This document shows positions 4,377 through 64,000 of a DNA stretch of 64,000 bases, piece by piece (position 1 is the stretch's first letter; the number at the start of each line of letters is the position of its first letter). The position numbers and the translations under genes were made by a program. This stretch comes from a virus (lineage: Duplodnaviria; Heunggongvirae; Uroviricota; Caudoviricetes): positions 1 to 64,000 of the IMG/VR virus record IMGVR_UViG_3300005323_000039; one strand, written 5' to 3'. Below the pieces are notes generated by a model. It searched no databases and had not been told where the DNA came from. It was given only the letters and a program-made list of their open reading frames with translations.

Positions 4377-4379
4377 AGT

Positions 4380-4400: not shown

Positions 4401-4411
4401 CGTTTGTGTAG

Positions 4412-4741: not shown

Positions 4742-4777
4742 CTCCACCCCTGTTACTATTTTTGCGGACTTGATTAC

Positions 4778-26106: not shown

Positions 26107-26436
26107 ATGTCAGGTAAAGCGACTGTTCAATTGGACTTATTCGGAGCAAAGGATCCGTTGGCTGGATTCGAACGCCCTGAATACCATGAAAAAGATTATC
26201 CTCAGTGCAAGGGTTCGGAAAAGAAGCCAATGAAGGACTTGAATTACTTTTACGTGGATTTTTATGGCCGCGATGACCTATTCCAACGTTTGACTCTAAT
26301 AATGAAAAAACGAAGTGGAATACGCGGACTCCACAGAGTAAATCCAGAACTCTTTGAACAAATGGTGTTGTCATTAGAAGGAGATCGTGTTGTGATGGAG
26401 GACACAAATGATGACGGAAGTACAACCCAAGTTTAG
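26107..26436 (+). CDS. hypothetical protein
   Basis: ORF overlapping start of radical SAM gene. Confidence 0.35.
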   Translation: MSGKATVQLDLFGAKDPLAGFERPEYHEKDYPQCKGSEKKPMKDLNYFYVDFYGRDDLFQRLTLIMKKRSGIRGLHRVNPELFEQMVLSLEGDRVVMEDTNDDGSTTQV

Positions 26437-27838
26437 GTTCGAGCGCAAGAATGTATGTAAAGAATGTTTTTCTCACAGCGCTCATTGCCCTGACGCTCAC
26501 ACATGTGATCCCATTCGACAAAAGTTGCGAAGCTATGGCGGTATTAGATTCACAGCGGACGGATTCGATTGTGCTTTGCCTGTAACGATAGATTCACATA
26601 GCGCCTGCTCATTTTCGTGTTCTTATTGTTTTTCAAAGTCATTGATGGGACACAGAGAATCCGTTAAGGAAAATGCTGTTGGGCAAACTTCCTTAAATAT
26701 GCTCGAAGGAATATTCAGCGGGAGGACCAAAGGTAGGTCTGAGCAGTTCCGAACGGCTCTTAAATACGACAACAGAAACGCCAAAGGGTATCCTTGTGCG
26801 GTGCAGCTAGGTGGAGTATGCGATCCTGGAGATAACATCGAGCGAAACCAAGGATGGTTGTTAAAATTTATGGACCTCGCTATAAAGTATGAGCAACCTG
26901 TGCGTATGTCTTCCAAAGGCAACATATTTCTCGAACGTGAATATCTGGACAAGTTCGCTGAGAGACCCGACCTTTTCTGGGTCGCATTCAGCATAATAAC
27001 TCCAGATGACAAATTATTGCCTTTAATCGATCGTGGATGTCCTATACCATCTGAAAGGATTGAAGCAATGAACGCTCTTGCAGGGGTTGGAGTTACAACA
27101 AGTTTACGATTCCGACCGATGCTTCCCGGATTGAGCGATCGGACTCCATCTTACGATCAAGCGTACGCTGTGCTTATTGAGAGAGCGGCTGAAGCTGGAG
27201 CCAAAGCCATTAGTTATGAGGCAGGATTTGTCCCTGGTATGATGACAAAGGACATGAAGTCTGAATGGGATGGTATAGAAAAAATAACTGGAATACCCAT
27301 ACGCAGCATTTATAAACGTTTCGGGAAGATGCAGGCATGTACTAGACCATCTTATAAATGGACTGAAGGCATAATGCATGCTGTACGAGACGAAGCTCGC
27401 AAACATCATATGTGGATTGGTGTAAGCGATCCGGTATGGAAACAATTAGGCGAACATGGCTGTTGCTGTGGCATCCCCAAAGATCACCCGGTGTTTGGGA
27501 ATTGGCAACGTGAGAGCGCCACAAATCAATTGTTGGAAGCTCGCGATACTGGCAAAGAAATTCATTGTAGAGATATTGTGCCAAAATGGGCAGAGCAGGT
27601 TGGCGAAGAAGGTATGATTTGTTACCCGGCAGGACCACACGTTCGTCACGACGGCAATCACAAAATGTGGTCGCACACTCTAAGAGAAGTATGGAACACT
27701 ATCGATAAGGAGAGGTCCCCAATGAATTATTTCCAAGGGTGCTTGGAACCAATTGGACTTGACGAAGACAAGGATATAGTTTATAGGTATGTGGGCTTGA
27801 AGAGGCACTACAAGAAGGCCCCATATTGGAGTGTCTAA
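26408..27838 (+). CDS. radical SAM enzyme (CxxxCxxC), possibly SplB/COG1533-like
   Basis: CSFSCSYC cluster motif about 70 aa from N-terminus; additional N-terminal Cys/His cluster CKECFSHSAHCPDAHTC. Confidence 0.6.
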   Translation: MMTEVQPKFRFERKNVCKECFSHSAHCPDAHTCDPIRQKLRSYGGIRFTADGFDCALPVTIDSHSACSFSCSYCFSKSLMGHRESVKENAVGQTSLNMLEGIFSGRTKGRSEQFRTALKYDNRNAKGYPCAVQLGGVCDPGDNIERNQGWLLKFMDLAIKYEQPVRMSSKGNIFLEREYLDKFAERPDLFWVAFSIITPDDKLLPLIDRGCPIPSERIEAMNALAGVGVTTSLRFRPMLPGLSDRTPSYDQAYAVLIERAAEAGAKAISYEAGFVPGMMTKDMKSEWDGIEKITGIPIRSIYKRFGKMQACTRPSYKWTEGIMHAVRDEARKHHMWIGVSDPVWKQLGEHGCCCGIPKDHPVFGNWQRESATNQLLEARDTGKEIHCRDIVPKWAEQVGEEGMICYPAGPHVRHDGNHKMWSHTLREVWNTIDKERSPMNYFQGCLEPIGLDEDKDIVYRYVGLKRHYKKAPYWSV

Positions 27839-49465: not shown

Positions 49466-50659
49466 ATGGGAGCTACTAATAAATTTGGCAAGGTGGCAGG
49501 CAAGACACTAAACGCTAGTGATATTGCAACGAGTGCCGTCACAACAACCGAAATTTTGGACGGTACAGTTGCCGCCACAGACCTTAACACTGCTATATTT
49601 AACAGCGCAACCGAAGCTGTTATTGATGTTGCAAACGACGACATTATCTTTAATGATCATAGTGATTCGCACAAATTCAAGCGAGAAGCTTTCGCCGATG
49701 CTATAACTGCTATAGCAGGTACACAAGCAACATCCGCTCTGACTGCAACCAGTGGAGTCTTGGCAGTCGCTCCAAGCGACAACGCGATTACTATCGGTGC
49801 GGATAGCTTAATTTATGCAACTGCTGCTGGCGTAACTAAAAAAGACCTCGCATCAGATGTTGTTACAGCCATCGCAGGAACGCAGGCTAGCACCGCATTA
49901 ACAGCCGCATCTGGAGTTCTAACGGTTGCACCTGCAGACAATGCCATAACCATTGGCACGGATAGTTTAGTGTATGCGACAGCAGCTGGATTGACTAAAA
50001 AAGATCTGGCTTCGGACGTCGTTACAGCAATTGCCGGTGCTCAAGCAGACACAGCTCTAACTGCTGCAGCAGGTGTCCTGACAGTCGCGCCCGCAGATAA
50101 CGCGATAACTATCGGTACAGATAGTTTAATGTATGTGACTGCGGCAGGCGTACCGAAAAAAGACTTAGCATCTGACGTTGCAACTGCTATGGCTGGGTCT
50201 GGTTTAACCGCGACAGCAGGCGTTCTGAGCGTCAATACAATTGGAATTGCCGCCATGACCGCGGATGATACCGGTTCAATATTCTTTGTTAAAGGCGAGA
50301 TGGACTTCGGCGCGTCTAACGTAATTGATGTCGATTTAGGAGCATTAGGGACTAAGGGCACTCTATTGGGCGGATGGGCTACTGTTTCAGAAGTTCAAGC
50401 TAATGGTGACGCAACAACTGCAATTGCACTACATAAAGCGGCTGCAGGTGCTGCTCCTATATGCGACCCTCTCACAATAACTCTAGCAGATACTGTTGGA
50501 ACCAATCGTTTAGGTGCTGTTCTTGGCATTGTTCCTGTAGCTGCTGGTGTAGATGTTCTTTCCACTGAACACATTTACGCATACACTGCGGATGATGTTG
50601 CGGGTACAAGGTCCGCTGGAAAACTCTACTTTGTATTGCTCTTCCAAAAATCAGCTTAG
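49466..50659 (+). CDS. Ala/Thr-rich structural protein with three and a half 53-aa tandem repeats
   Basis: Repeats TAIAGTQA..LTA.SGVL.VAP.DNAITIG.DSL.YATAAG..KKDLASDVV at residues 81,134,187,240; followed by hairpin + T10. Confidence 0.5.
   Translation: MGATNKFGKVAGKTLNASDIATSAVTTTEILDGTVAATDLNTAIFNSATEAVIDVANDDIIFNDHSDSHKFKREAFADAITAIAGTQATSALTATSGVLAVAPSDNAITIGADSLIYATAAGVTKKDLASDVVTAIAGTQASTALTAASGVLTVAPADNAITIGTDSLVYATAAGLTKKDLASDVVTAIAGAQADTALTAAAGVLTVAPADNAITIGTDSLMYVTAAGVPKKDLASDVATAMAGSGLTATAGVLSVNTIGIAAMTADDTGSIFFVKGEMDFGASNVIDVDLGALGTKGTLLGGWATVSEVQANGDATTAIALHKAAAGAAPICDPLTITLADTVGTNRLGAVLGIVPVAAGVDVLSTEHIYAYTADDVAGTRSAGKLYFVLLFQKSA
49706..50251 (+). repeat. in-frame tandem DNA repeat, period 159 bp, about 3.4 copies
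   Basis: Direct reading of near-identical nucleotide blocks. Confidence 0.8.
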
Positions 50660-50660
50660 G

Positions 50661-50690
50661 CGACAATTGAATGTCGTCTGTTTTTTTTTT
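50661..50690 (+). terminator. hairpin (CGACA-ATTGAA-TGTCG) followed by T10 run
   Basis: Immediately after stop of 49466..50659. Confidence 0.4.
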
Positions 50691-50710
50691 CATTTTAGGA
50701 GTCGATCCAA

Positions 50711-51133
50711 ATGAGAGTTTATGATGCGTACCGACGCAACATCATTACGCAAGGGCAATATGCTGCCATAATTGAAGCTGGCTTCACTGACAGCGATACA
50801 TATTATTCGGCAATGCTCGCACCCACCTCCGACGATCCAGCCAATGTTACAGGCACAACAACAAACACTTCAACAACAGTTATTGCAAGTGACACCCATG
50901 AGAGTACAGTTCAGACTGTTGTTGTAGAAAATACAGGCGACACCAACACTCTATCCTACACGATTCAATTTTATGCTGCAGACTTACTCTACAATACAAT
51001 TACAGGAACGGTCACTCCCTCAGATGTATTCATGATGCGCACAAGGGATGCTGTGACTCTAATTGCTCTAAAGGTCGCAAGCACATCTGCAGGAAATCAT
51101 ACTACTTATGAGGCGGCTATCGTGGCCGCATGA
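50711..51133 (+). CDS. small structural protein, member of ENTG-motif paralogue family
   Basis: VVVENTGDTNTLSYTIQFYAA resembles motif in 51168, 54644, 55043 ORFs. Confidence 0.4.
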   Translation: MRVYDAYRRNIITQGQYAAIIEAGFTDSDTYYSAMLAPTSDDPANVTGTTTNTSTTVIASDTHESTVQTVVVENTGDTNTLSYTIQFYAADLLYNTITGTVTPSDVFMMRTRDAVTLIALKVASTSAGNHTTYEAAIVAA

Positions 51134-51167
51134 ATGAATTTTGAATAAATTTTTGGAGAAATTTTAA

Positions 51168-51518
51168 ATGACATACCAATTGAATCCAACACCAGGAGTA
51201 TCCAATACAACGACCGGAACTACTGCCGACGCATACGCTGTTGCCCTGACACTTCCCTGCCTCGGATACTCACAAAAAATGATTATATTGAAGAATACGC
51301 ATGCGACCAGAGGACTCACGTTCAAGCTGGATGGTTATGCACATGCGGGTGGCCTCGCGAACAATATCCTGATCGATGTCGCCTTGGTGGCCCTCGACAC
51401 TTATGTGATTGAGATTACAAAGCCCTATGCTTCGCTCGTATTGAGCGTGAAGTCCACGGTGGCGTCAACTCCCGCGACATATACTATCGACCACGAAATG
51501 AATTCTGGAGGCCAATAG
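51168..51518 (+). CDS. small structural protein, paralogue family
   Basis: KMIILKNTHATRGLTFKL similar to KTILVENTHATYDMNVKV (54644 ORF). Confidence 0.4.
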   Translation: MTYQLNPTPGVSNTTTGTTADAYAVALTLPCLGYSQKMIILKNTHATRGLTFKLDGYAHAGGLANNILIDVALVALDTYVIEITKPYASLVLSVKSTVASTPATYTIDHEMNSGGQ

Positions 51519-51521
51519 GAA

Positions 51522-51917
51522 ATGACAATCACGACATATAGTGATAGAACAGCACCAACCACCCTGCCTTTGCCCACAGGTGCATCCACCTCAGCAAACC
51601 AGCAGCCACCCGCTACAACTCCTGCAATGGACAGCATAACCATTGTTGCCGCAAATACCGAGTACAGCAAGGCACTTCCTGCAAACTGCAAAGCCTTCTG
51701 TTTTCAAACAGTAGCAGCCGATAAGCTAACAGCAGGCGCTGATATCAGGTACGCCTTCGCTACTGGGAAAGTGAACTCCCTGACATTGCCCTTCCAGATA
51801 CTCGTCGGTGGAGCAGTCTATTCAAAAGAGTCCCTGAACCTGACATCTAAAACGATATATGTAGCGGGCGGAGCCGATGCTGTTGGGAATATTGTTCTTC
51901 TTGAGTGGTGGACATAA
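51522..51917 (+). CDS. stand-alone homologue of the C-terminal domain of the repeat-containing fibre protein (55489..56661)
   Basis: EYSKALPANCKAF..YAFATGKV...NLTSKTIYVAGGADAVGNIVLLEWW aligns with EYSYSIPSNCKSV..FAFTTGKV...NLSSKTVYFASDNAGDIVEILAWS. Confidence 0.45.
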   Translation: MTITTYSDRTAPTTLPLPTGASTSANQQPPATTPAMDSITIVAANTEYSKALPANCKAFCFQTVAADKLTAGADIRYAFATGKVNSLTLPFQILVGGAVYSKESLNLTSKTIYVAGGADAVGNIVLLEWWT

Positions 51918-53431
51918 TGCCCGCTGGTACAAAGCCGTACACATCCAAGGATTTTGCCAAGGATAATCCCAATCACTACACAAGAAAAGATTGGAATTGG
52001 ATGATCTATGACATCGATTCGATATCACATCGGAGGACACTAAAAAGCCCCGAATATATCACTGTCGAAATAGGCGGAGACACGTATAGACTCAGGACTC
52101 AGCAGCTAATAGATTTTGACACAGATTCCGTCTGGGATACGGTTGTAGGTACTGATTACTCAGATCTTACTGTTAGGGCTGGCAAGGACGTCTATTTCTA
52201 CATGTGTCAGCCAGGATACGGGAAAATCCCCGAAATCATAATGTCCGGGGCCTCTACATGGCCCTCTGGTTATGATGCCGACAGCTCACGAAAAATAGGC
52301 GGGCTTCATTGCATGCCAGGCGCTTGTGTCAACCTCCCGGTAGGCCATCCGTACAAGGACTTCGATCAAGGTGCGTTGCATTTCAATTCGATTTGGGATC
52401 TCAACGATGGGCCACGGTGCTCTCCAGAAGGCATGGCGAAGATCAGCCTGACGCCCTCGGACGGCAGGCCCGCTCTTTGGGTAGACATCTACCTCTTCAA
52501 CGGCGTTGGTACCACCCTCACATCGGTTTTCGGTGCAACAATCAAGGATACGATTGATTGGATGACATTTGTCGATTATGCCGGGGCAGCGAAGAAGACT
52601 CTGCTCACAGACGCGGAGTTCCAACTCGCGGCCGCTGGCAGTAACGAAGAGACGCACATAAGCACGGGGCTAGATCCAGTAACCGTGACTTTCCCCGTGG
52701 ATACGGCGGGCCGCTCCATGATTTCAAATTATGGCGTCATCGGCATGTGCGGCATAATGTACCAGTGGATTTTAGATGGTCTCGGAAAAGTGGAACCAGA
52801 TGGCACGGTCACCGCCGCATCGAAAACAGCCACGGCGTACCATGCCGCGAGCCCCGGTGGTAACCCCATCTATGTAAAATATGCTGAAAATGGTGAGCCG
52901 TATTTATGTTGTAACATGGCCATAGATACTGCTGATAAATGGCTCACATTTGGAACTGATTACAGAGTGTTGATAAAACATGATGCTGATGCAGCAACTG
53001 GATCTACTCAGCTATATCTCGACGAGGATGCAACCCAACCATCCCGGCCGCTATCGGCCTTAGCGCGGGGAAAAGATGCGTATGTTGCTACGAATAATCC
53101 TTTCTATGTATTGAAGATAACATACAATGCCGCACCAGCAACACCCGGAGTCGCCATCACGTTCGATGATGGCTCAGATGAGAGACTAGAATTCACATCC
53201 CCAACTTCTGTAAATGGTACAATCGATTTGGCGCAGCTATATCCGAACTACAACGCATACGACTACAGCACAAAGGGATCATATACGAGGTACGGCGGGA
53301 GCTATGATGTCAAGCAGATAGCAGGAGGCCACTTCCAGGCCGGGGTCGGCGCGGGATCTAGATGCAGATTTGCGTTATATCCCCGGTGGATTACGCAATC
53401 ATTCATCGGAGCACGGGGGTGTTCGAATTAG
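51905..53431 (+). CDS. tail fibre/tail structural protein candidate
   Basis: 508 aa, Gly/Thr/Ala-rich; GC-elevated block; overlaps next ORF by 62 nt. Confidence 0.4.
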   Translation: MVDIMPAGTKPYTSKDFAKDNPNHYTRKDWNWMIYDIDSISHRRTLKSPEYITVEIGGDTYRLRTQQLIDFDTDSVWDTVVGTDYSDLTVRAGKDVYFYMCQPGYGKIPEIIMSGASTWPSGYDADSSRKIGGLHCMPGACVNLPVGHPYKDFDQGALHFNSIWDLNDGPRCSPEGMAKISLTPSDGRPALWVDIYLFNGVGTTLTSVFGATIKDTIDWMTFVDYAGAAKKTLLTDAEFQLAAAGSNEETHISTGLDPVTVTFPVDTAGRSMISNYGVIGMCGIMYQWILDGLGKVEPDGTVTAASKTATAYHAASPGGNPIYVKYAENGEPYLCCNMAIDTADKWLTFGTDYRVLIKHDADAATGSTQLYLDEDATQPSRPLSALARGKDAYVATNNPFYVLKITYNAAPATPGVAITFDDGSDERLEFTSPTSVNGTIDLAQLYPNYNAYDYSTKGSYTRYGGSYDVKQIAGGHFQAGVGAGSRCRFALYPRWITQSFIGARGCSN

Positions 53432-54194
53432 GGGTAGCCCTCAACATTTCAACTCGTATATAGATCTAGTGAATGCTGATGCTGTATATCCGGGCGGTGT
53501 AAGAAAATATATCACAGATGTTCTATACTACGACGAAGCCGAACTCGCCCGACTGGGCGCGCCAGTGGACTTCATATCAAATTTTGGCACTAGCCTCAAT
53601 CTCGTATTCGAGGGCGATAGCCTGACTGCGGCACTGAGTTCGTCCTATCCCGAATATCTAAGACAGCTTTTGGCAGGATCTTACGTCACAAAAGTGTCAA
53701 ATCTAGGCCAGGGCGGCGAAGGTATATCACAAATATTAGATTCCGCAGAAACCAATGCTATAGACGCTTGTATTGATAGTAGATTCACAAAGAATATTGC
53801 AGTTCTCTGGATAGGAACAAATAGCTTACCCGGAACTGATGTTGAGACAGAGATAGCCGCACTGTTGGCTGGAACTGATACATGGTGCAGTGGCCGCCTA
53901 GCCGCAGGTTTTGATCATTGCGTTGTGCTGTCACTCACTCCCTCTGCTAATCTCGCGCAGGGGGCGAACCACGAAGAGGCACGCCTAGCATACAATGTAT
54001 TACTCAGATCAAATTATACAGAGTTTGCTGATGCTCTCGTGGATATAGGAGCTGATCCTATCATGGGCGACTATGCGCAGGCAAATTCCGGGCCGAATTT
54101 CTACTACGACTCCTCGAAAGTGCATCATTCCCGAGGAGGATGGGAAATAATCGCCTCGTTGGTAAATACTGCAATTTTGGAATTGGCGGCATAG
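53370..54194 (+). CDS. SGNH/GDSL-family hydrolase (esterase) candidate
   Basis: LVFEGDSLTAA GDS(L) block I motif near N-terminus of conserved part; real start may be GTG at 53468. Confidence 0.45.
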   Translation: MRYIPGGLRNHSSEHGGVRIRGSPQHFNSYIDLVNADAVYPGGVRKYITDVLYYDEAELARLGAPVDFISNFGTSLNLVFEGDSLTAALSSSYPEYLRQLLAGSYVTKVSNLGQGGEGISQILDSAETNAIDACIDSRFTKNIAVLWIGTNSLPGTDVETEIAALLAGTDTWCSGRLAAGFDHCVVLSLTPSANLAQGANHEEARLAYNVLLRSNYTEFADALVDIGADPIMGDYAQANSGPNFYYDSSKVHHSRGGWEIIASLVNTAILELAA

Positions 54195-54206
54195 CCACAA
54201 ATCTAC

Positions 54207-54353
54207 ATGACAGATACCAAGTCATACATAGAGACAGATGCCGAACTCGAAACCCTTATCGGCGCAGGCAACCGCTACCTGAATATGCGCATCAAGGACG
54301 CGGCTGCTACTGGAATGGTAGCGACTCATGTTGCTACGGTGATGGGACTCTGA
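54207..54353 (+). CDS. small hypothetical protein (48 aa)
   Basis: Manually found ORF in 450-bp gap; followed by GGAGAA/TTCTCC hairpin. Confidence 0.2.
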   Translation: MTDTKSYIETDAELETLIGAGNRYLNMRIKDAAATGMVATHVATVMGL

Positions 54354-54643
54354 GGACAAAAGGAGAACCCCCATTCTCCTAACTCCTTTCGTCTATAGTA
54401 TATAGGAATACGCCCTATCTATACCATATACCCATGGGGATGTAACCGGAAACATTCCTCATAATGACTTTTAGCCTGCTAGAATGCGATAATTTCCCGA
54501 TTGTAAGTATCCAATGATAGAAATTAACAATTCAAATCAGCCTCCCGCGGCCTGTTTAAAGTGCTTTTGTAGAAACGCTTGCGGCATAACGAAATGCGAG
54601 AAAGCGACCAAGGAAACACTACAGGATTCGCCATAAATTCTCT

Positions 54644-55033
54644 TTGGAAAAATTACGCTCACCTCATATATTGATAACAATGACTGCAAACGAAACATCG
54701 AATACAAACCTCGCTGATGGATGGTGTGACTTCATTACAGGCACATGCAGTGACGCCTATTCAATTTTGATCGAATGGAACTCCCTAGGCTACAACAAGA
54801 AAACAATACTTGTAGAGAACACTCACGCAACGTACGACATGAACGTTAAAGTCCTATGTTATACGTACGACAATCAAACTCCATACGAACAAGTACCAGA
54901 AATGACACTCACTTCTGGAGATATTTTAAGAGTTACCCTGAATAAAGCTTGGTCGCAGGTAGTTGTATGGGGCAAGAATAGAGTTGCTGGCCAGAACTGT
55001 ACTTGGAATCTAGATTTTACAGGTCACAGGTAG
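54644..55033 (+). CDS. small structural protein, paralogue family
   Basis: ENTHAT motif; paralogous to 55043 and 51168 ORFs. Confidence 0.4.
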   Translation: MEKLRSPHILITMTANETSNTNLADGWCDFITGTCSDAYSILIEWNSLGYNKKTILVENTHATYDMNVKVLCYTYDNQTPYEQVPEMTLTSGDILRVTLNKAWSQVVVWGKNRVAGQNCTWNLDFTGHR

Positions 55034-55042
55034 CGTGATAGC

Positions 55043-55507
55043 ATGGTTTTAATGAGTATAAGGAATGCGTTCAGGAGAGGCTTTATTTCCGAAGCTACGT
55101 ACCTTGTGAAACTTGCGGAAGCTGCTGGAGATGACGAAATTCCAATAGTTGTAACCGTTCCAACGGCAATCTTCACGCAAACTCCACCTAATGGTTTTTC
55201 TGATTATGCTACAGGCACAACAACAAGCAACTATATGGCGGGAATGACTTGGAACTGCTCCGGATATGATCAAAAATCCATTACAATAGAGAATACAGGT
55301 GGAGCGAATTCACTAACTGTATATGGTGCGCTCCGAGCGTATCCAGCAGGCATATCATATACTGAACCTGACGCAACTGTTCTCACTCCCGGAGACATTC
55401 TAACAATTGAACTGAATTTTGCATACGCTGAAATCTCCACGATGATTAAATCGACAACTCCAAACTTCCATACAACTTATAAAATTTCTTGGGCAGGTGC
55501 TCTATGA
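55043..55507 (+). CDS. small structural protein, paralogue family
   Basis: KSITIENTGGANSLTVYGA motif. Confidence 0.4.
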   Translation: MVLMSIRNAFRRGFISEATYLVKLAEAAGDDEIPIVVTVPTAIFTQTPPNGFSDYATGTTTSNYMAGMTWNCSGYDQKSITIENTGGANSLTVYGALRAYPAGISYTEPDATVLTPGDILTIELNFAYAEISTMIKSTTPNFHTTYKISWAGAL

Positions 55508-56661
55508 CACAGTACTCTTACACAGATGTTACAGTCACAATTGATCATATAACAGGTGCATTGCCAGCAGGCACCAATTTAATTGGCAAAGTTGGCATAG
55601 ATCAGGTTACAGCGAACGCAAATGAAATTGTCATAAAAAGTATAACGGCTGGCCCTCTACCAGACACGTCCGGAGGAGATCTTGCCAGCATTGAATCTTC
55701 TGCTGCTGATATTAAGACTGCAATCGAGATCCTAGACAACGTAGTAAGTGGATCCGAAGCGCAGGTAGACATTGTAACGTTGCCCGCGGGTCATTTAGGC
55801 CAACAACTGGCTGCAGGCTCTCTATCAGTTGTACCAGGAACAAACATAGCGGATGCAACCTATATCGGGGACATTAAGTTCGGCGAGGCTCTTCCGGCTG
55901 GTACGGCACTCCTGGGTAAAGTCGGAATCGATCAGACGACACCCGGAACCACGAACCTCGTGAATGTGAATGGCGGTGCGAGTCAGACCAGTGACATTAA
56001 AGTTACCTTGGACTCCGAGAAAGTTGTAATCGCATCCATTGATGGCGGTGACACGAACATCGGAAACGTTGACATCGTGACATTGCCTGCGGGAAACCTT
56101 GGCCAACAGCTAAGTGCTGCGTCACTTTCCGTTACACCTGCTACGAACGTGGCAGATGCTACTTACATTGGAGATGTAAAGTTTGGTGAAAGCTTACCAG
56201 TGGGCAGCGCAATTGTAGGCCAAGTTGGTATCGATCAAACAACCGATGGAACCACGAACAAGGTCCAGGCTCGTAACGCAACGCATGATAACTTCCAGGC
56301 CAACGCAAACCTCCAGGTTGGAGACGCTGACGTCGCTGCAGGAAATCCCGTACCTGTTACGACAGCAGGAAGTATGGCATCAACTATTGGTGAGCAAAAT
56401 GTCACTCTAACTGTAATTGATACTGAATACTCGTATAGTATTCCATCCAATTGCAAAAGCGTTGAATTTTGGTCGCGTAATGGCTATCCGGTTAGATTTG
56501 CGTTCACGACTGGAAAGGTTGCAACACCAACTGGCGTTTACTTCACCCTGAAGTCAAATTGCAGCTATGCAAGCCCGCCATCATTGAATCTGAGTTCGAA
56601 GACTGTCTATTTCGCCTCTGATAATGCTGGTGACATCGTGGAAATTCTGGCTTGGAGCTGA
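55489..56661 (+). CDS. tail fibre protein with internal 101-aa repeats and shared C-terminal domain
   Basis: Two copies DIVTLPAG.LGQQL.A.SLSV.P.TN.ADATYIGD.KFGE.LP.G.A..G.VGIDQTT.GTTN; C-terminus homologous to 51522..51917. Confidence 0.5.
   Translation: MGRCSMTQYSYTDVTVTIDHITGALPAGTNLIGKVGIDQVTANANEIVIKSITAGPLPDTSGGDLASIESSAADIKTAIEILDNVVSGSEAQVDIVTLPAGHLGQQLAAGSLSVVPGTNIADATYIGDIKFGEALPAGTALLGKVGIDQTTPGTTNLVNVNGGASQTSDIKVTLDSEKVVIASIDGGDTNIGNVDIVTLPAGNLGQQLSAASLSVTPATNVADATYIGDVKFGESLPVGSAIVGQVGIDQTTDGTTNKVQARNATHDNFQANANLQVGDADVAAGNPVPVTTAGSMASTIGEQNVTLTVIDTEYSYSIPSNCKSVEFWSRNGYPVRFAFTTGKVATPTGVYFTLKSNCSYASPPSLNLSSKTVYFASDNAGDIVEILAWS
55768..56259 (+). repeat. in-frame tandem repeat, period about 303 bp, 2 copies (plus partial N-terminal copy)
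   Basis: Direct reading. Confidence 0.6.
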
Positions 56662-58495
56662 GAAAATGCCACAGAAGTTAGATAAGTCTCCGAGAGGCGC
56701 ATACGATGCCATAGTCTTCATCGACGGCTCTGAGGTCGTGGCAGAGGATGCTGATGGTCGGCGTATTGCATCAGGAACGGCGGGGACGGACGACGTGGCG
56801 GTGCTGCAAGCAGCTCATGACTCTGGTAGTAGATATTATGGTGGTACAATTTCGCTAGATGGCATATTTAATCTCGCCGATGTGCCTTGGATCATTAGAA
56901 ACAATTTCACAAAAGTTCGTGGAAGTGCAAACACTATCATAAAACAGAATAGCGCAAATGTTGACGCGATTCAGTTTACCCCAATTGTTGGTCAATCTGC
57001 TATCGAATTTGTTGGTATGGAAGATGTACGAGTCGAAACGGTTGCTGGCTCTGGAGACGCCATTAATACATATAGACTGTGCAGATCATGCCTTAAAAAT
57101 ATTCACATTCCAGGCGCTGGAAGATATGGTCTACGTTTAAACTCGTCGCTGCTCAACGAAATAGATAGTTTGTGGGTAAGCCCGGATTTAGCACAGGGGT
57201 TATCTGGTTGCGGAACTGCATGCGTCAATATCCATCGAGAGAATACTTCTGATTGGGCATCAAACGCAAATGTATTTGTTGCTCCAACTCTCGAACAATC
57301 ACAATATGGTCTGTTGATCGATGACCAACGTAATGATGCTGGCACAAACGAAGGCTTCAATCTCGTTCTCGGCGGAACAATTGAAAGTCAAACAGTTGAA
57401 GGGATATCTGCAACTAGAACGGATGGTCTTCAAATATATCAGACAGATCTTGAAGGTCGGGGTATTACTCTATCATATTGCCATTGGGCCGCGCTCTCCC
57501 CCGTCCATATGGACGCACTCGTTGCGTCGAATTGTCAAGGTGTAAAGTTTTTCAACGGGAAACTGGATAATGGCATTACTCTTACATCGTGTAATAACTC
57601 ATTATTTGAAAATATCAGAAATGGTGGAGGGTTAGATCTCAATGGATGCAACACCACCAGATTCTTAAATTACGTAACATATGGATCTACATTAGTCAGA
57701 TCTAATAACGTTCTCACCGAATTTTTGAATGGCGTGTTTGCTGCTCTTGCACCATCTGATTATGCATATGATACCGCATATCAACGAATGTCGTTTGGTG
57801 ATAACAGTTGGTGGGGCGGCGAGCCTGGATGGAATGACGTTCTTAATAATAGAGACATGAATCCATCAGATAGTGCATTGCCAAATGGGTTTGTTCAGAA
57901 TGGCTCCCCGACTTTAGAAACGTGTGGTATTGGCCACGCGGACACGACGAAATACAAAAAGGGGCATTCTCTGAAGATCACAAAATCAGATGCTCATGAT
58001 GGTGTATACGTTCCAATTAATGGGCATTTCACAGAAGAGAAAATTGTCGTAAAATTTAGGACGAGTGCTATAAGTGGTTCTGCTCCTCTCATCTTGGTAA
58101 CAGATTCCGACTTCAACCCATTGATATCGAAGTCTTGCGTTGCGGCATCAGCGTCAACCGCATGGGCAAAAAATGATTATATGTTTACAGTGCCTGCTGG
58201 ATATTCTACATTATGGATATTATTCTCTGGAGCGAATGGACAAGTCGCATCATTTTATCTTACAGATGTTGTTGTGGGTAGATATGACACGATAGCGACA
58301 TCTTCCGGCTCCTCAACCGGCACAAGCTCCGAACAAACCATCGCCCACTCCCTAGCCGCAATTCCCACCGGCTGCAAAGCCTGGATCAAGTATCTGGTAG
58401 GTACTCGCTACGTCACGGAGATGATTCCCTTTGATGCTACAAATGTTTATCCGAATGTTACTGCTGGTGTCGCATACGAATGGAGGATAGAGTAA
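56624..58495 (+). CDS. tailspike / right-handed beta-helix (pectin-lyase-fold-like) protein candidate
   Basis: 623 aa; repeated short beta-strand segments with Asn/Gly ladders (NGITLTSCNNSLFENIRNGGGLDLNGCNTTRF) typical of parallel beta-helix. Confidence 0.4.
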   Translation: MLVTSWKFWLGAEKMPQKLDKSPRGAYDAIVFIDGSEVVAEDADGRRIASGTAGTDDVAVLQAAHDSGSRYYGGTISLDGIFNLADVPWIIRNNFTKVRGSANTIIKQNSANVDAIQFTPIVGQSAIEFVGMEDVRVETVAGSGDAINTYRLCRSCLKNIHIPGAGRYGLRLNSSLLNEIDSLWVSPDLAQGLSGCGTACVNIHRENTSDWASNANVFVAPTLEQSQYGLLIDDQRNDAGTNEGFNLVLGGTIESQTVEGISATRTDGLQIYQTDLEGRGITLSYCHWAALSPVHMDALVASNCQGVKFFNGKLDNGITLTSCNNSLFENIRNGGGLDLNGCNTTRFLNYVTYGSTLVRSNNVLTEFLNGVFAALAPSDYAYDTAYQRMSFGDNSWWGGEPGWNDVLNNRDMNPSDSALPNGFVQNGSPTLETCGIGHADTTKYKKGHSLKITKSDAHDGVYVPINGHFTEEKIVVKFRTSAISGSAPLILVTDSDFNPLISKSCVAASASTAWAKNDYMFTVPAGYSTLWILFSGANGQVASFYLTDVVVGRYDTIATSSGSSTGTSSEQTIAHSLAAIPTGCKAWIKYLVGTRYVTEMIPFDATNVYPNVTAGVAYEWRIE

Positions 58496-58998
58496 TGACC
58501 GAAAATCCCGTCATGGTTCCCAACTTCCCGGAATCAATTCTCACTTGGGAAGATGAAATTCTCAGTTATGAAGGAAATATTCTTACATATGGTTTTGTAT
58601 ATGGATGGTGTTCACCAATGAGTGATGCAAAATGTAAAACATTAGGACTACTGTCTTCAACGACAGTAAGTTTCGCGGCTGATGCGCACACGGTTCTCTA
58701 CACGGTCCCTGTTGGTAAGAGATGTGTCCTGCATTCGGCTTGTATCGTGGCTGCGACTGATGCCGGAGCAACTACAGCAGTTTCCATTGGCGCGAATGGG
58801 GCTGAAACCGATTTCGTCGGGGCTCATGTTCTGAGCAACCTCGACGCCCAGTATGATTCTGTCTGGCTAATGCCGATTCCGAACGCGACTCCTGTGAAAT
58901 GTAAGTCCTATGCTGCTGGAACTGTTATTGAGATGGCAGTGGCGACGCAATCAGGCGGGGCTGGAAACACGGTTTATCTCTTCGGATATCTGTACTAA
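58480..58998 (+). CDS. hypothetical tail-associated protein
   Basis: ORF overlapping tailspike stop. Confidence 0.4.
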   Translation: MEDRVMTENPVMVPNFPESILTWEDEILSYEGNILTYGFVYGWCSPMSDAKCKTLGLLSSTTVSFAADAHTVLYTVPVGKRCVLHSACIVAATDAGATTAVSIGANGAETDFVGAHVLSNLDAQYDSVWLMPIPNATPVKCKSYAAGTVIEMAVATQSGGAGNTVYLFGYLY

Positions 58999-59110
58999 AA
59001 GCTAAGTGAACAATCAATTGTTCACTTGTTTCAATTTATTATGCAATATGAATAATAGTCTCATCAATACTTGAGACAACTAACAAAAAACTAAAAGGAG
59101 AACTGAATAA

Positions 59111-59452
59111 ATGCCAAAAGACATAACATACCTTAAAAATGGTACAGGACTCATGGTGTGCGACGGTTGTGACACCATCATGAAGATCGTGAATCAAAAG
59201 GCTCGCCAAGTCCAGTCCGCTATAATCGAAGGGCAGTCTGCTGGTGCAGGCAGCACACTAGCTTTTAACGAAGACAAGCGCGCGATTCAAAACTTGGAAT
59301 CCCTTAAAGCTGATGTCGATTTAATGGTCGACAATCTTGTAACTCTAATTAAGGGCGTCAAGCACATGGAAGTTGACGCGGATCAGTTGGATCACGCCGG
59401 AGTTACAGGATACTACGCACTTCCAGCGACCGTACCAATGGGCGACGAATAA
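59111..59452 (+). CDS. hypothetical protein
   Basis: AAGGAGAA SD-like 10 nt upstream. Confidence 0.4.
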   Translation: MPKDITYLKNGTGLMVCDGCDTIMKIVNQKARQVQSAIIEGQSAGAGSTLAFNEDKRAIQNLESLKADVDLMVDNLVTLIKGVKHMEVDADQLDHAGVTGYYALPATVPMGDE

Positions 59453-59487
59453 ACCACAAATTAAACAAACTTTATAATAATGATCGG

Positions 59488-60737
59488 CTAGAGTGGAGAC
59501 GCTCTAGTTCAATACATTTTATTCAATTAATAGAAAAGCAGGCAACGTCTCGGTTGAAGTGATCAAACGATACATAGAGGAATGTCAGGGTTGAAGACCG
59601 CCTACAAGTTCAGGCTCTATCCAAACAAACAACAGGAAGCCATGTTAGACCTGACTCTTGAAACTTGCAGGCATCTCTATAACTTAGCTTTGGCCGATAG
59701 AAAGAACGCCTATGAGGTTGAAGGTGTCAGTCGAAACTATGAGGATCAGGCTGCTATGCTGACTGTTGAAAAGAAGGACGGCAATTTCAAGGGCGTCTTC
59801 TCCCAAGTGCTTCAAGATGCCCTGAGACGGCTGGATAAGTCCTTCAAAGCGTTCTTCCGAAGAGTTAAGGCTGGAGAAGAACCAGGATATCCTCGGTTCA
59901 AAGGCCAAGGCTGGTACAAGTCGTTCACGTATCCGCAGGCAGGTTTCAAGCTGGAAGGTTCAAAGCTGACTCTCTCCAAGATAGGTTCTATCAGGATCTT
60001 CAAGCATCGAGAGGTAGAAGGCAAGATCAAGACCTGTACTATTAAGAAAGATAAGCTTGGTCGCTGGCATGCTATCTTGGTATCTGAGATAGAAGACGTA
60101 CCTCAAATAGAGTCTAAGACAGCTATTGGCGTGGACGTTGGTCTGAAGAACATGGTAGCTCTGTCCACCGGAGAGACAGTTCAGTATCCAAGATACTATG
60201 TCAGAGCTGAACAAAAGCTTGCTGTAGCCCAGAGAGATCTTTCCAGAAAGAAGAAAGGATCAAGTAACCGTCGAAAAGCCAAAATCAAGGTCGCTAGGCT
60301 CCATCAGAAGATCCAAAACCATAGAGATGAGTTCCTGCATCAGGTATCCAGGAAGCTGGCGGACTCAGCAGACCTAATAGTATTTGAAAACTTGAATATT
60401 CAGGGAATGTTGAAGAACCATCACCTGGCAAAGCATATTCAAGACCATGCTTGGGGCAAGCTAATCCAGTTCACACAAAGCAAAGCTGCAAAGGCTGGCA
60501 AGGTGGTAGAACTGGTAGAGGCTAGGTATACGTCTCAAAAGTGCTCTCCGTGTGGTATAATGGTTCCTAAGACTCTGGCAGAAAGAGTCCACCACTGCCC
60601 TAATTGCGGGCTAGAGATGGATAGGGATATCAATGCCAGTCTAAATATCGTCACCCTCGGACTGAGGGGAAGAGCCTGCGGAGATACCAGAGCACTGGAT
60701 CTATGAAGCAGGAAGCCCTGCCCCTTTAGGGGCGGGG
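59488..60737 (+). mobile_element. IS200/IS605-family element of IS1341 type (tnpB only, no tnpA), approximate boundaries
   Basis: Upstream hairpin CTAGAGTG-GAGA-CGCTCTAG (59488-59507) and downstream GC-rich hairpin GCCCTGCCCC-TTTA-GGGGCGGGG (60715-60737) flank an intact tnpB; GC of tnpB higher than flanks. Confidence 0.5.
59582..60706 (+). CDS. tnpB: TnpB (IS605 OrfB; OMEGA RNA-guided endonuclease)
   Basis: N-terminal KFRLYPNKQQE...LYN motif; RuvC-I GVDVGL, RuvC-II IVFENLN, zinc finger CSPCG..CPNCG, RuvC-III DRDINASLNI. Confidence 0.85.
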   Translation: MSGLKTAYKFRLYPNKQQEAMLDLTLETCRHLYNLALADRKNAYEVEGVSRNYEDQAAMLTVEKKDGNFKGVFSQVLQDALRRLDKSFKAFFRRVKAGEEPGYPRFKGQGWYKSFTYPQAGFKLEGSKLTLSKIGSIRIFKHREVEGKIKTCTIKKDKLGRWHAILVSEIEDVPQIESKTAIGVDVGLKNMVALSTGETVQYPRYYVRAEQKLAVAQRDLSRKKKGSSNRRKAKIKVARLHQKIQNHRDEFLHQVSRKLADSADLIVFENLNIQGMLKNHHLAKHIQDHAWGKLIQFTQSKAAKAGKVVELVEARYTSQKCSPCGIMVPKTLAERVHHCPNCGLEMDRDINASLNIVTLGLRGRACGDTRALDL

Positions 60738-60766
60738 AGGAAGTCACTCAATTAATTGATTAGTAT

Positions 60767-61009
60767 TTGAATAAATTTAATGGAGGACTAAATTTAATGC
60801 CAACTCTAAAAGAAATTTCAGAATTTATTGACACTCAGAAGAACCTTGGGATAACTCTACTTGCTATATTCATTGGATTGTACGTGACGATGAATTCAAG
60901 CATACTCGATATGACGATCGCCAAACAGTGGGTTGATTTAGCTCAACTAGCTGTCGGCATTTATATTGGTCATAGAATAGAAGCGGGCCGCACTCCAAAG
61001 GAAGAATAA
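60767..61009 (+). CDS. small membrane protein (holin-like?)
   Basis: 80 aa, two hydrophobic segments, basic C-terminus. Confidence 0.35.
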   Translation: MNKFNGGLNLMPTLKEISEFIDTQKNLGITLLAIFIGLYVTMNSSILDMTIAKQWVDLAQLAVGIYIGHRIEAGRTPKEE

Positions 61010-61206
61010 GAGTAGCGCGAGATGACGAACGTGATTGCGCCACGTCCACCAGAGCCCGCGCAATATACTAACCGCTCTATTCGAATATATACTTTACCGC
61101 AATAAACTATATACTCAATCTTTGGTATATTGTTTTGGAGTAGAGTAAATGTTCCGAGCGATTAGTATACAACATTCCCCTTACAATCCCACTCCAAAGG
61201 ACTATT

Positions 61207-61620
61207 ATGACTAATGATATTGTTCCTGAAAGCGATCGAGAAATTCTAATCAAGATCGCCACAAGAATGGACAGCGGGTTCACTTACATCACGCACAAGC
61301 TGGACGATTTGTGCGAGCGACTGAAAGCAGTAGAGGAAGTGACAAACGAAGTGAAGAACTTCCCCACCTTTCGAGACACAACGTGCCCTCAAAAGATGAA
61401 TCAAATCGAACAAAGTTTGCAAAATGTCGAGTCAAGATTAGGCAAACTTGAAAATGACCATTTAGTAGAGTGTGGCGAAGAACAAGCAGCCACTACATTT
61501 TGGTCCATTCCAAGGGAAATCCTCCTGATGACAATGGGCGCGATTGTAGCAGCAATTGTCGGAGGACTTGGATGGATTGCATTTAAAGTCCTATGTAACA
61601 CATTCTCCATTGGATGTTAA
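61207..61620 (+). CDS. coiled-coil protein with C-terminal TM anchor
   Basis: 137 aa; C-terminal hydrophobic helix ILLMTMGAIVAAIVGGLGWIAF. Confidence 0.4.
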   Translation: MTNDIVPESDREILIKIATRMDSGFTYITHKLDDLCERLKAVEEVTNEVKNFPTFRDTTCPQKMNQIEQSLQNVESRLGKLENDHLVECGEEQAATTFWSIPREILLMTMGAIVAAIVGGLGWIAFKVLCNTFSIGC

Positions 61621-61646
61621 AAAATAGAAACTAAATAACGAACACA

Positions 61647-61817
61647 TCACACAGTATACCATGATATGGGTGTAAGAATGGCGCAAATCATTGCCAAAGC
61701 AAAAGCTATGATTGTTCCATATGATGTGTTCGTTACTTTATTTATTACAAATCCAATTGTACCACATACGATGGCCAAAATACCACTCAAACCTAACGTT
61801 GCCAAAGTATTAAACAT
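61647..61817 (-). CDS. small 2-TM membrane protein (56 aa)
   Basis: Manually translated minus-strand ORF MFNTLATLGLSGILAIVCGTIGFVINK...; not in track. Confidence 0.25.
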   Translation of the reverse strand: MFNTLATLGLSGILAIVCGTIGFVINKVTNTSYGTIIAFALAMICAILTPISWYTV

Positions 61818-61836
61818 TGTTTAACCTCTAAAATGA

Positions 61837-62103
61837 TTAGAAGGACTGTATGAGGCCTCCCATGATTATTGAGCGTGCGACTAACTCTTTTTCCTCTTGT
61901 GTCATATGGACACAATATTTATTGATGTAGTCTGTTATGATACAGTCATGAAATTCTTCTTGTGTAGAGTAGCGCGAATCTTCGATTGTATCAATTGTTG
62001 TTTGTACGTCGTTGCGTGTTTGATTTGTTGCTTTGCGCGCTCCTTCGTCTGTGCCTAGTAGGATTTTTAAAGCTAGTGCTAATTCTCTTTGCATGTAGTC
62101 CAT
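61837..62103 (-). CDS. hypothetical protein
   Basis: Minus-strand ORF downstream of radical SAM gene. Confidence 0.4.
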   Translation of the reverse strand: MDYMQRELALALKILLGTDEGARKATNQTRNDVQTTIDTIEDSRYSTQEEFHDCIITDYINKYCVHMTQEEKELVARSIIMGGLIQSF

Positions 62104-62112
62104 CTCCGCATT

Positions 62113-62316
62113 TTACTTCTTATGTGCTTCTTCTCCAAACATCACATTTTCTCGTTCTTGCCATTCTTTACGTTTCTTAGCTCTATCAATCGATGAGGTG
62201 TTCGGAATTGACGGTTTGGACGCATCGCTCGATGTATCTATACCTATTGCAATTATTGTACAGAGTGTCGCCCCAACAATTGCTAACAATATTACACGCA
62301 ATATGTTTAACTCCAT
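62113..62316 (-). CDS. small membrane-anchored protein
   Basis: N-terminal TM, basic C-terminus; immediately downstream of radical SAM gene. Confidence 0.35.
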   Translation of the reverse strand: MELNILRVILLAIVGATLCTIIAIGIDTSSDASKPSIPNTSSIDRAKKRKEWQERENVMFGEEAHKK

Positions 62317-62335
62317 ATCATACCTTCTTTTGATT

Positions 62336-63751
62336 TTACTTCTTATTCACTTCTTTTATACGCCTCACTCCAAGGATGTCGTGCTTTACAACACCGTAAG
62401 CGAGAACGTCGGGATCTCTCCCAAACATCATACCCCTTCTACGTCTCCGTTGCATTTCGTCTCGCCACGCTCTTGTATAATCTTCATCTTCTTCTATAGG
62501 CTCAACTTTATCCTCTAGTGCGTCATCTACTATTGTTTGAAACGTTTTGGCTGCATCACTTGATGTTGACGAATCAACTGAAGGATGCATCTGAACAGCG
62601 TATGCCATAACTTTAGTTTCGTACGTTCCAACGCCATACACAATTGTGCCTTCATATGGCCTGACTCCATATAAAGTGACTTCTAATGGTTTGTATGGAT
62701 CAGGCAGCTCAATTGGTTGTTCTGGTAACGGAGTTGCAGGTTTAGGTGCAATGGTTGGCGTGAGACGTTCAATCGCAGGATACTTTATGCATTTTCTGCA
62801 TGAATGTGTGTAACCTGCCCCAAACCTTATATCCTTAAATTGTGACTCCCAAATTTCTTTTAAAGTTTGTTTGTTCAGATTACCGTAAGGTGTAGCAATT
62901 CCGTTGTTGCAAGCGCGCTCGCTCAGGCACGCTATAACGTCTCCATCAGCAGTTATTCCACACGTACTGATTCCAGCTGAACAAGTATGCTCATCTTGTA
63001 GATTGTCCGCTAAGATGTAACTAACGCCTGTTGTGTGGTTCCGAATGCGTTCCCTCAAATAAGATATTCCATTTGGAGGGAGCTGGAATTCGCCCATCGT
63101 TAGTTGAATTTGCCACGTTCCGAAGCCACTCGAACGAACGAACTCACTCAGAGCGTCAAATTGCCATACGTTGTGCGTACCAAAGTTTGTAATTATTGTA
63201 ATATCTTTTTCGTGGCCATCAACGTAATCAAACCAATACGGCCACTCTTCATTTACACTTAGTCCAATGCATGTGACTTTATCAATTTGTTTGTACCAGC
63301 TCCACTGAGCTAGAATTTTTCCGTTAGTCACTATTCGAACGTCGATGCCGCCATCAGTTAGAGTTTGTATGATGTGGTCTAGGTGTTCGGACGGAAGCTC
63401 CCCAGGCTCTCCACCACTTAGCGTGACTGTATTCACTCCATATGAAACAATTTCTTGTGCGATACGGTCGAGTTGCTCAAATGGAGGGTTGTCGCGCCGA
63501 AGGACTGTTTTGGACCCACAATATTTGCACCCATTTGAACATTTGAGTGTCACTTCCCATATAATTTCTTTCAATTTTAAGGGTGTCATGTAAACCTCTG
63601 TTCCAATAAGACTCCTCCAATTGCAGCAACAACACATAGTATGACGGCAGGGACGATCGACCAAGATCCAAACAACGACTCCAAAACATATGACCATATT
63701 GTACCGATAATCATTCCACTTGACAATATCCACAATAGTACAAATATCCAA
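62336..63751 (-). CDS. radical SAM enzyme with Cys-rich SPASM/twitch-like auxiliary region and Pro-rich C-terminal extension
   Basis: CSNGCKYC (CxxxCxxC), TLSGGEP SAM-binding motif; downstream Cys array C-x6-C-x10(DGDVIAC)-C-x5-C ... SCRKC. Confidence 0.6.
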   Translation of the reverse strand: MDICTIVDIVKWNDYRYNMVICFGVVVWILVDRPCRHTMCCCCNWRSLIGTEVYMTPLKLKEIIWEVTLKCSNGCKYCGSKTVLRRDNPPFEQLDRIAQEIVSYGVNTVTLSGGEPGELPSEHLDHIIQTLTDGGIDVRIVTNGKILAQWSWYKQIDKVTCIGLSVNEEWPYWFDYVDGHEKDITIITNFGTHNVWQFDALSEFVRSSGFGTWQIQLTMGEFQLPPNGISYLRERIRNHTTGVSYILADNLQDEHTCSAGISTCGITADGDVIACLSERACNNGIATPYGNLNKQTLKEIWESQFKDIRFGAGYTHSCRKCIKYPAIERLTPTIAPKPATPLPEQPIELPDPYKPLEVTLYGVRPYEGTIVYGVGTYETKVMAYAVQMHPSVDSSTSSDAAKTFQTIVDDALEDKVEPIEEDEDYTRAWRDEMQRRRRRGMMFGRDPDVLAYGVVKHDILGVRRIKEVNKK

Positions 63752-63767
63752 CTTTTCATGTATGATT

Positions 63768-63788
63768 GTACGTTAAAGTAGTATATAT
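63768..63788 (-). promoter_or_regulatory. archaeal-type promoter (identical 21-mer to 4380-4400) upstream of minus-strand radical SAM gene
   Basis: Reverse complement reads TATATATACTACTTTAACGTA; lies about 20-40 nt upstream of ATG at 63751. Confidence 0.4.
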
Positions 63789-63813
63789 AGGTTGCTGTTG
63801 GAAAAAAATAGAG

Positions 63814-63978
63814 TTAAGTGTACCACTTGACTGGAAGGAGCGTTGCATACGCAACAACGAATACAATGCCCGCAAGCATAGAGGATACTGGCCCCACAAT
63901 GTTCCACAAGCCCGAAAATATTGCAACAGATATTGCCGTTCCAACAATCGAAGCTAGTATGATTTTCATCATGGTCAT
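63814..63978 (-). CDS. small 2-TM membrane protein (54 aa)
   Basis: Manually translated MTMMKIILASIVGTAISVAIFSGLWNIVGPVSSMLAGIVFVVAYATLLPVKWYT; preferred over overlapping Cys/Arg-rich track ORFs. Confidence 0.25.
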   Translation of the reverse strand: MTMMKIILASIVGTAISVAIFSGLWNIVGPVSSMLAGIVFVVAYATLLPVKWYT

Positions 63979-64000
63979 GGGGTTTCTGCCTCCAAGAAAT

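Follow-up and report, generated by a model that had tools for sequence, protein, structure and literature searches.

In IS608 and ISDra2, the left-end hairpin is required for excision of the element by the transposase TnpA. Insertion sequences (ISs) of the IS200/IS605 type transpose without duplication of the target (PMC8612924), and about 16 nucleotides (nt) of flanking DNA past the right end serve as the guide of the accompanying TnpB nuclease (PMC8612924), which cuts 15-21 base pairs (bp) from the transposon-associated motif (TAM) (PMC8612924; 10.1101/2023.03.14.532601). In archaea, the sotRNA and HgcC RNAs have been linked to the 3' ends of tnpB genes of the IS1341 type (PMC4615843; Rfam RF00062). 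Moreover, a report on Methanoperedens describes TnpB genes shared by this archaeon with its viruses, plasmids and Borgs, and uses them as evidence for host links and gene exchange (10.1101/2023.08.02.551345). Here we analyzed a tnpB gene and its guide-RNA (omega-RNA) scaffold in a 64,000-nt stretch of viral DNA (positions 1 to 64,000 of the IMG/VR record IMGVR_UViG_3300005323_000039; hereafter the window), where an original prediction made from the sequence alone had placed an intact IS1341-type TnpB.

Comparison with related copies revealed that the element spans positions 59532-60747 (1216 nt). Judged from its sequence, it is not an intact IS1341-type unit but a left-end-truncated deletion derivative of a tnpA-tnpB (IS605-type) element. 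With a probability of roughly 0.6, we consider it a transposition-dead IS200/IS605 remnant, a selfish passenger able to act only as an RNA-guided homing nuclease. The element and its borders comprise the following features.

59519..59522, + strand: TTAT target or TAM tetranucleotide, displaced by 9 nt from the left end, which it abuts in 23 other copies
59523..59531, + strand: left 9-nt direct repeat TCAATTAAT, identical to 60748-60756
59532..59544, + strand: left-end stub AGAAAAGCAGGCA, corresponding to nt 1-13 of the left end in the family and matching its start in host copies
59538..59594, + strand: tnpA 3' remnant, AGNVSVEVIKRYIEECQG plus stop, aligned with the full tnpA of seven copies (L027, L030, L036, L037, L040, L047 and L120)
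59582..60706, + strand: tnpB open reading frame (ORF) of 374 residues from ATG 59582 or 371 residues from TTG 59591, from the ORF call, family profiles and alignment
60650..60747, + strand: omega-RNA scaffold and right end (98 nt), from a covariance model, covariation and the boundary in about 40 copies
60716..60737, + strand: terminal 9-bp GC-rich stem-loop CCCTGCCCC-TTTA-GGGGCGGGG, from the fold and covariation, beginning 9 nt past the tnpB stop
60748..60763, + strand: predicted guide segment TCAATTAATTGATTAG, from the family mechanism, its first 9 nt being the right copy of the direct repeat

The left part of the element is a junction of two pieces. Upstream of tnpB, the window reads TTAAT/AGAAAAGCAGGCA/ACGTCTCGGTTGAAGTGATCAAACGATACATAGAGGAATGTCAGGGTTGA, and the 15-mer ATAGAAAAGCAGGCA occurs only once in the window, the chance expectation being 0. 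The tnpA remnant comprises the last ~17-19 codons of the gene (..NVSVEVIKRYIEECQG and the stop at 59594), overlapping the tnpB start as in the full copies. In L120, a full copy of the same sub-lineage, tnpA reads ACTGCAGGCAACGTG at the junction position, which indicates that the deletion joined two GCAGGCA heptamers, one at nt 7-13 of the left end and the other near the 3' end of tnpA. The heptamer at 59538-59544 is a 7-nt microhomology common to both, and the left breakpoint coincides with the foot of the extended left-end stem. The deleted segment comprises the left end from nt 14 onward, including its hairpin, an A/T-rich box (..CTATATCT..) and ~108 of the ~125 tnpA codons. The same deletion junction was found in none of the viral contigs searched.

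What remains lacks the parts on which mobility depends. There is no left-end hairpin in 59532-59600, and the left-end motif is absent throughout the window. Neither a second TnpB nor any TnpA gene is present in the 64-kb window, and the Y1 (HUH) transposase that an IS605-type element encodes in cis is reduced to its C-terminal codons. The earlier statement that tnpA is absent is only partly right, as it overlooks the 13-nt stub and the tnpA codons at 59532-59594. The right end keeps both the subterminal hairpin and the conserved cleavage point. As the left-end hairpin, the promoter region and nearly all of tnpA were deleted, the element should no longer transpose; by analogy with IS608 and ISDra2, TnpA would be unable to excise it either in cis or in trans.

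The family's ends are sharply defined by its other copies. Both the tnpB-only (1274-1331 nt) and the tnpA-tnpB copies (1637-1675 nt) start with TTAT/AGAAAAGCAGGCAGAAGACCC, after which come a GC-rich hairpin and the conserved flank ..GGGATGAATGCCGTAC.., and TTAT directly precedes the left end in 23 of 23 distinct copies with both ends. The right flank of the L039 copy contains, in unbroken form, the site into which L035 inserted (TTTTTTTAT/TATGCGTGC), a filled/empty pair that demonstrates insertion 3' of TTAT without duplication, which is the standard behavior of IS200/IS605 elements (PMC8612924). At the other end, DNA similarity to ~40 host copies always stops at 60747 (...GGGAGGAAGTCAC), with unrelated flanks past GTCAC. 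Since the similarity ends at one and the same base in all of them, 60747, where the window element terminates in ...GGAAGTCAC, is the right end of the insertion sequence.

The final ~100 nt of the element, of which the scaffold overlaps the last 19 codons of tnpB, are conserved well beyond what synonymous sites allow. RNAalifold folded them into four helices, all of which carry compensatory changes. In an alignment of 38 sequences, 96% of the pair cells hold standard pairs and 13 of the 26 pairs are changed on both sides (103 cells), compared to 27-52% pairing and 2-5 double-changed pairs in controls with the structure slid by 1-3 columns. A covariance model (R1) made from 37 other copies, with the window left out, has its sole match in the window at 60650-60747, over its full length (114.4 bits, E 2.5e-24), so that the covariance search proposed along with the original prediction located a 3' omega-RNA scaffold just where one had been expected. 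Neither a second omega-RNA nor a left end was found in the window. The 9-bp GC-rich hairpin that had been noted 9 nt past the stop corresponds to the conserved terminal stem, in which six of the nine pairs show compensatory changes among the copies, and by sequence and structure it is the right-end hairpin as well as the last helix of the omega-RNA. It resembles the left-end hairpin of full copies, a likeness expected for TnpA-binding sites. No Rfam family covers this RNA and none matched the window at the gathering thresholds. Below the thresholds, the one suggestive match came from the Rfam HgcC model (RF00062), over its full length at 60643-60760, the score of which (13.3 bits, E 3.8) falls below the gathering threshold of 50 and thus does not make the RNA an HgcC member.

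From its sequence, the encoded protein is a bona fide, catalytically complete TnpB. All the motifs listed in the original prediction are present, including the N-terminal KFRLYPNKQQ segment, and the matches to HTH_OrfB_IS605, OrfB_IS605 and Cas12f1-like_TNB (PF12323, PF01385 and PF07282) are all above their cut-offs, as is that to guided_TnpB of NCBIfam (NF040570; 333.8 bits against 100); the family scores over their cut-offs run 333.8/100, 96.5/30.5, 82/26.3 and 57.5/21 bits. Residues 7-369 align end to end with the structures of ISDra2 TnpB (8H1J, 8EXA and 8BF8; E ~5e-60). The RuvC residues D185 in GVDVG (60134-60136), E269 in VFENLN (60386-60388) and D349 in DRDINASLNI (60626-60628) fall on the ISDra2 motifs GVDVG, GTEHL and DRDENA, respectively, and the putative catalytic triad thus sits on a proper TnpB profile. 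The catalytic residues of ISDra2 TnpB are D191, E278 and D361. Both CxxC pairs of the zinc finger are kept as well (CSPC(G) at 60542 and CPNC(G) at 60596, with C321/C324 and C339/C342). Among the 188 columns that are at least 97% conserved in 117 close homologues, the window TnpB differs at only two (V80A and Y163H). Its complete RuvC triad sets it apart from the nuclease-dead TldR regulators. The Cas12 family models score far under their cut-offs, and a self-comparison of the window revealed no repeat array near 59-61 kb, so that the locus does not qualify as a type V CRISPR-Cas12 system.

The closest TnpB homologues (85-92% amino-acid identity) reside in Methanotrichaceae/Methanothrix genomes, in several copies per genome and among cellular genes. 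An origin in the gene pool of a Methanothrix-type (Methanotrichaceae) host is the best explanation suggested by these sequences. The same IS family also occurs, with TnpB identities of 81-87%, elsewhere in viral contigs that share the portal, terminase, family B DNA polymerase, MuF and tail genes of the window (30-53% amino-acid identity). Each of these contigs has one or two copies at differing sites (L004 at 1091-2191 and 4359-5474; L005, L006, L007/L008 and L010 near position 10001), mostly complete tnpB-only units with TTAT and the left-end hairpin, and L006 has independently lost that hairpin and tnpA residues 1-85. The 113-residue gene upstream of the window element has homologues in ~20 other contigs (58-63% identity), which are never followed by the window tnpB. 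The absence of tnpB after these homologues, together with the varied viral sites of the family, indicates an insertion by a lineage that invades viruses repeatedly. By this comparison, tnpB is not ancestral to the virus group, as the original prediction had supposed in calling it acquired.

The higher GC content that had been read as a sign of recent acquisition did not survive comparison. The GC content of tnpB is 0.469, against a mean of 0.440 (sd 0.034, maximum 0.502; z = 0.86) for the 35 other window ORFs of at least 150 residues, several viral genes being higher; we therefore rejected GC as an acquisition signal, the tnpB value being one that genes of the virus itself also show. The synonymous divergence (dS) from the closest host copy among those sampled is 0.44, and neither value shows that the acquisition was recent.

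Two observations concern the host copies themselves. A full tnpA-tnpB copy with 82% TnpB identity (L036, JALHIE010000133.1) lies on a contig binned as a Porphyromonadaceae bacterium, probably a mis-binned Methanothrix contig. The copies L046 and L047 have perfect ends and omega-RNA and early stops in tnpB (80 and 101 codons), and family decay in host genomes is thus ongoing.

The gene content gives good support for the window being viral. Among its products are a D5-like primase-helicase, an RNA ligase, a family B DNA polymerase, a large terminase, a portal, a MuF-like head protein and an Mtd-like tail protein, a set that marks a large tailed virus. The earlier view of a tailed archaeal virus as the carrier is correct, and a Methanothrix-type host is likely. 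A 116-kb Joint Genome Institute contig (L123), reached via a member of a cluster, is 100% identical to window 49642-64000 and hence represents the same virus. A protein on a 173-kb contig is identical over the 371 residues read from TTG 59591, and the two identities together indicate that the virus has been assembled more than once. No nucleotide match to the window was found in the GenBank phage collection.

Three further features belong to the viral DNA around the element.

59464..59476, + strand: viral TATA-like box AAACTTTATAATA, read from the sequence, 55 nt upstream of the element
59487..59508, + strand: hairpin in viral DNA (DNA fold -6.1 kcal/mol, z = -3.4)
60797..61009, + strand: downstream viral gene for a small hydrophobic protein of 70 residues, from the gene call in L123, with a homologue near the 113-residue gene in L113

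The TATA-like box may act as a promoter from which transcription reads through into tnpB, and similar A/T boxes occur in related viruses ahead of the gene that follows the 113-residue homologue. The hairpin 75 nt upstream of tnpB that the original prediction had pointed out is real; it lies 5' of TTAT and the stub and bears no similarity to the family's left-end hairpins, and from its position in viral DNA it is outside the element and not an IS end. The insertion splits the 5' leader of the 70-residue gene, for which no family match was found. The neighboring proteins of 113 and 172 residues have best relatives of only 58-63% identity, with downstream synteny not conserved, and the labels "tail-fibre" and "lysis-like" once given to the neighbors find no family support. 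In a related virus (L105/L109), a distantly related TnpB with 29% identity is encoded at 7911-8489 on the - strand, opposite in orientation to the 113-residue gene homologue of that virus and ~1.6 kb downstream of it.

We propose that a parent IS605-type element moved from the host into the virus and that the deletion at GCAGGCA left the stub, tnpB, the scaffold and the right end. Transcription would probably occur by read-through from the upstream viral promoter, and TnpB would bind the RNA of 60650-60747 extended by ~16 nt of viral flank, TCAATTAATTGATTAG. By analogy with the family mechanism, cleavage would be TAM-dependent and RNA-guided, falling on DNA in which TTAT is followed by TCAATTAATTGATTAG (PMC8612924; 10.1101/2023.03.14.532601). 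Such a target would be the insertion-free allele, CATTTTAT joined to TCAATTAATTGATTAG, in co-infecting relatives or excision products, and recombinational repair from the filled genome would then copy tnpB in. By cutting empty alleles and being copied during repair, the element could be maintained as a selfish gene for an RNA-guided homing nuclease.

Several observations weigh against this proposal. Expression of tnpB and the omega-RNA, cleavage and homing are what we infer, and TTAT is the putative TAM on the strength of insertion sites. It is TAAT, not TTAT, that touches the left end in the window. Flank-to-flank patterns retrieved no insertion-free locus from viral and metagenome contigs, nor was the TAM plus guide found in viral contigs; the comparison with related genomes that the original prediction recommended thus defined the ends and TTAT from the family copies and yielded no insertion-free relative. 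The deletion also removed the promoter region of the element itself, with the A/T-rich box that separates the left-end hairpin from the first gene. At the canonical start of tnpB, the ATG of the family is replaced by TTG 59591, ATG 59582 falling within the tnpA remnant. The ratio of nonsynonymous to synonymous divergence (dN/dS) against host copies, 0.07-0.09, indicates purifying selection over the combined history, spanning the whole path to these copies rather than the viral branch or the period after the deletion. The lost promoter region, the changed start codon, the precedent of the host pseudogenes L046 and L047 and the inability of dN/dS to resolve the terminal branch all speak for a serious rival, if an unlikely one, in which tnpB is an inert relic, unexpressed or useless after these losses and intact only because the deletion is recent. 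This rival has to accommodate a full-length ORF with only two of 188 conserved positions changed and its triad and zinc finger intact, an omega-RNA scaffold whose score equals that of working copies, TTG starts in the full copies L027 and L120 as well, and a TATA-like box 55 nt upstream of the element.

It is improbable that the virus instead keeps TnpB and its omega-RNA against competing viruses or host DNA, or to regulate a neighboring gene. In favor of this reading, retention of an immobile element would have to pay or be driven, the same family recurs in related viruses (including L006 without its left-end hairpin and 5' tnpA), and TnpB genes have been reported to be shared by methanogen and anaerobic methanotrophic (ANME) hosts with their viruses and extrachromosomal elements (10.1101/2023.08.02.551345). 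However, the predicted guide is the viral sequence adjacent to the right end, which is matched in full nowhere else in the window or among 119 host and viral loci. Nothing points to the targeting of host DNA which the original prediction had raised. The nuclease is intact, which sets it apart from the domesticated TldR regulators (PMC10705468); neither a CRISPR-like array nor any other repeat lies near the locus, and the viral copies are for the most part ordinary mobile units of the IS1341 type that have TTAT and a left-end hairpin. Co-option for defense or regulation accordingly has no positive evidence. Less credible still is a mobile IS1341-type element mobilized in trans by a host TnpA: matching transposases are encoded in host genomes and the right end with its hairpin is perfect, but the left-end hairpin and the flank ..GGGATGAATGCCGTAC.. 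are missing, the 1216 nt fall short of the 1274-1331 nt of tnpB-only copies, and the upstream viral hairpin is unrelated in sequence to those of the family. On this evidence, we favor the transposition-dead homing cassette.

The left border carries a further peculiarity. A flanking repeat of more than 4 nt is seen in none of the 23 other two-ended copies, and the window element has neither the abutting TTAT of the family nor the repeat-free flanks of these copies. The 9-nt repeat with its displaced TTAT may be a repair scar. In a scenario that we regard as doubtful, the repeat, the displaced TTAT and the GCAGGCA deletion would be the fossil of one TnpB-triggered break-repair event in the virus, the product of which would now behave as an RNA-guided homing gene. 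The element would have inserted canonically after TTAT 59519-59522, at TTAT/TCAATTAAT, and would later have been excised. TnpB would then have cut the donor joint, TTAT plus TCAATTAATTGATTAG, and error-prone repair would have copied from a filled sister genome with two template switches, at an AT microhomology of TAAT/TTAT and then at GCAGGCA, at the base of the hairpin in the left end. The GCAGGCA deletion would thereby be accounted for in the same event, and a TnpA-independent tnpB/omega-RNA cassette would result, which could spread among archaeal viruses by cutting empty alleles. Alternatively, local re-insertion at TAAT may have been followed by recombination between alleles, or a tandem 9-mer may have been there before the insertion. 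The 9-mer is over-represented in the window (nine matches against 1.3 expected); a role as a regulatory motif was rejected, as its other sites in the window have no common context.

Elsewhere in the window, the tail protein at 51905-53431 contains an Mtd second domain (PHROG tail protein, 2.4e-35), the fold of receptor-binding proteins diversified by diversity-generating retroelements. No such retroelement was found for it, neither a template/variable repeat pair nor a reverse transcriptase being present within the window. Diverged tandem repeats of ~160 nt with 71-74% identity occur at 49706-50196, inside a 397-residue ORF of the structural module (49466-50659), and the ORF at 55489-56661 has an internal repeat (55765-55956 and 56068-56259). 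The genes at 232-1497 and 1499-2743 are an adjacent paralogous pair with 67% nucleotide identity over 350 nt. In addition, an asparagine-synthase-like amidotransferase and two radical SAM proteins, one with a SPASM domain, are encoded at 24582-26006, 26408-27838 and 62336-63751 (- strand), which may form a module for nucleotide or peptide modification.

The locus ties an uncultivated virus to methanogens of the Methanothrix type, with which it has a fast-evolving insertion sequence in common, and reveals repeated invasions of a methanogen virus family by one IS200/IS605 lineage. It also provides a natural, sequence-perfect TnpB/omega-RNA cassette that has lost all of its transposition parts. 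Such a transposition-dead state is thought to be the origin of homing-only nucleases, Cas12-like effectors or regulators. Moreover, the family definition yields a compact archaeal TnpB of 371 residues with a putative TTAT TAM, a 98-nt scaffold with four covarying helices and sharp ends. Current understanding is unchanged, as TnpB in viruses and extrachromosomal elements of methanogen relatives has already been described. As a selfish passenger, the element is of an ordinary kind; what is unusual is the scar on its left side.

Compared to ISDra2 of Deinococcus radiodurans, the window TnpB has the same full-length architecture, D-E-D RuvC site and CxxC..CxxC zinc finger, and in both systems the guide-RNA scaffold extends over the 3' end of tnpB and the right end, and the TAM equals the transposase target site. 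They differ in sequence (~35-40% identity), in length (371-374 residues in the archaeal lineage of the window against 408 in ISDra2) and in the TAM, which is TTGAT in ISDra2 and predicted to be TTAT here; moreover, the window element lacks the left end and tnpA and resides in a virus. The Methanotrichaceae/Methanothrix elements (for example L020-L053) are closer, with TnpB identities of 85-92%, and have the right end ..GGGAGGAAGTCAC, the omega-RNA helices, the start of the left end (AGAAAAGCAGGCA) and the 3' end of tnpA in common with the window element. Unlike it, they have TTAT directly abutting the left end and keep the hairpin there, their long form encodes a tnpA of 125-129 residues, and they have no flanking direct repeat.

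Similar to sotRNA and HgcC, the window RNA lies in sense over the 3' end of tnpB and has a tetraloop hairpin resembling a right end (TTTA in the window, TTCA in many copies), despite falling outside the Rfam HgcC family. The Methanoperedens case resembles the window in that host-related TnpB genes occur in extrachromosomal elements of Methanosarcinales-type archaea, and differs in the host family and in a TnpB clade that is only ~48-52% identical, while the window has no CRISPR array; the passages of that report considered here describe no left-end deletions or flank repeats (10.1101/2023.08.02.551345). By analogy, the proposed life cycle is also close to that of the free-standing homing endonuclease genes of phages, which cut the allele lacking the gene and are copied in by recombinational repair. 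The phage enzymes recognize DNA through protein-DNA contacts, whereas the window TnpB is predicted to use an RNA guide plus a TAM.

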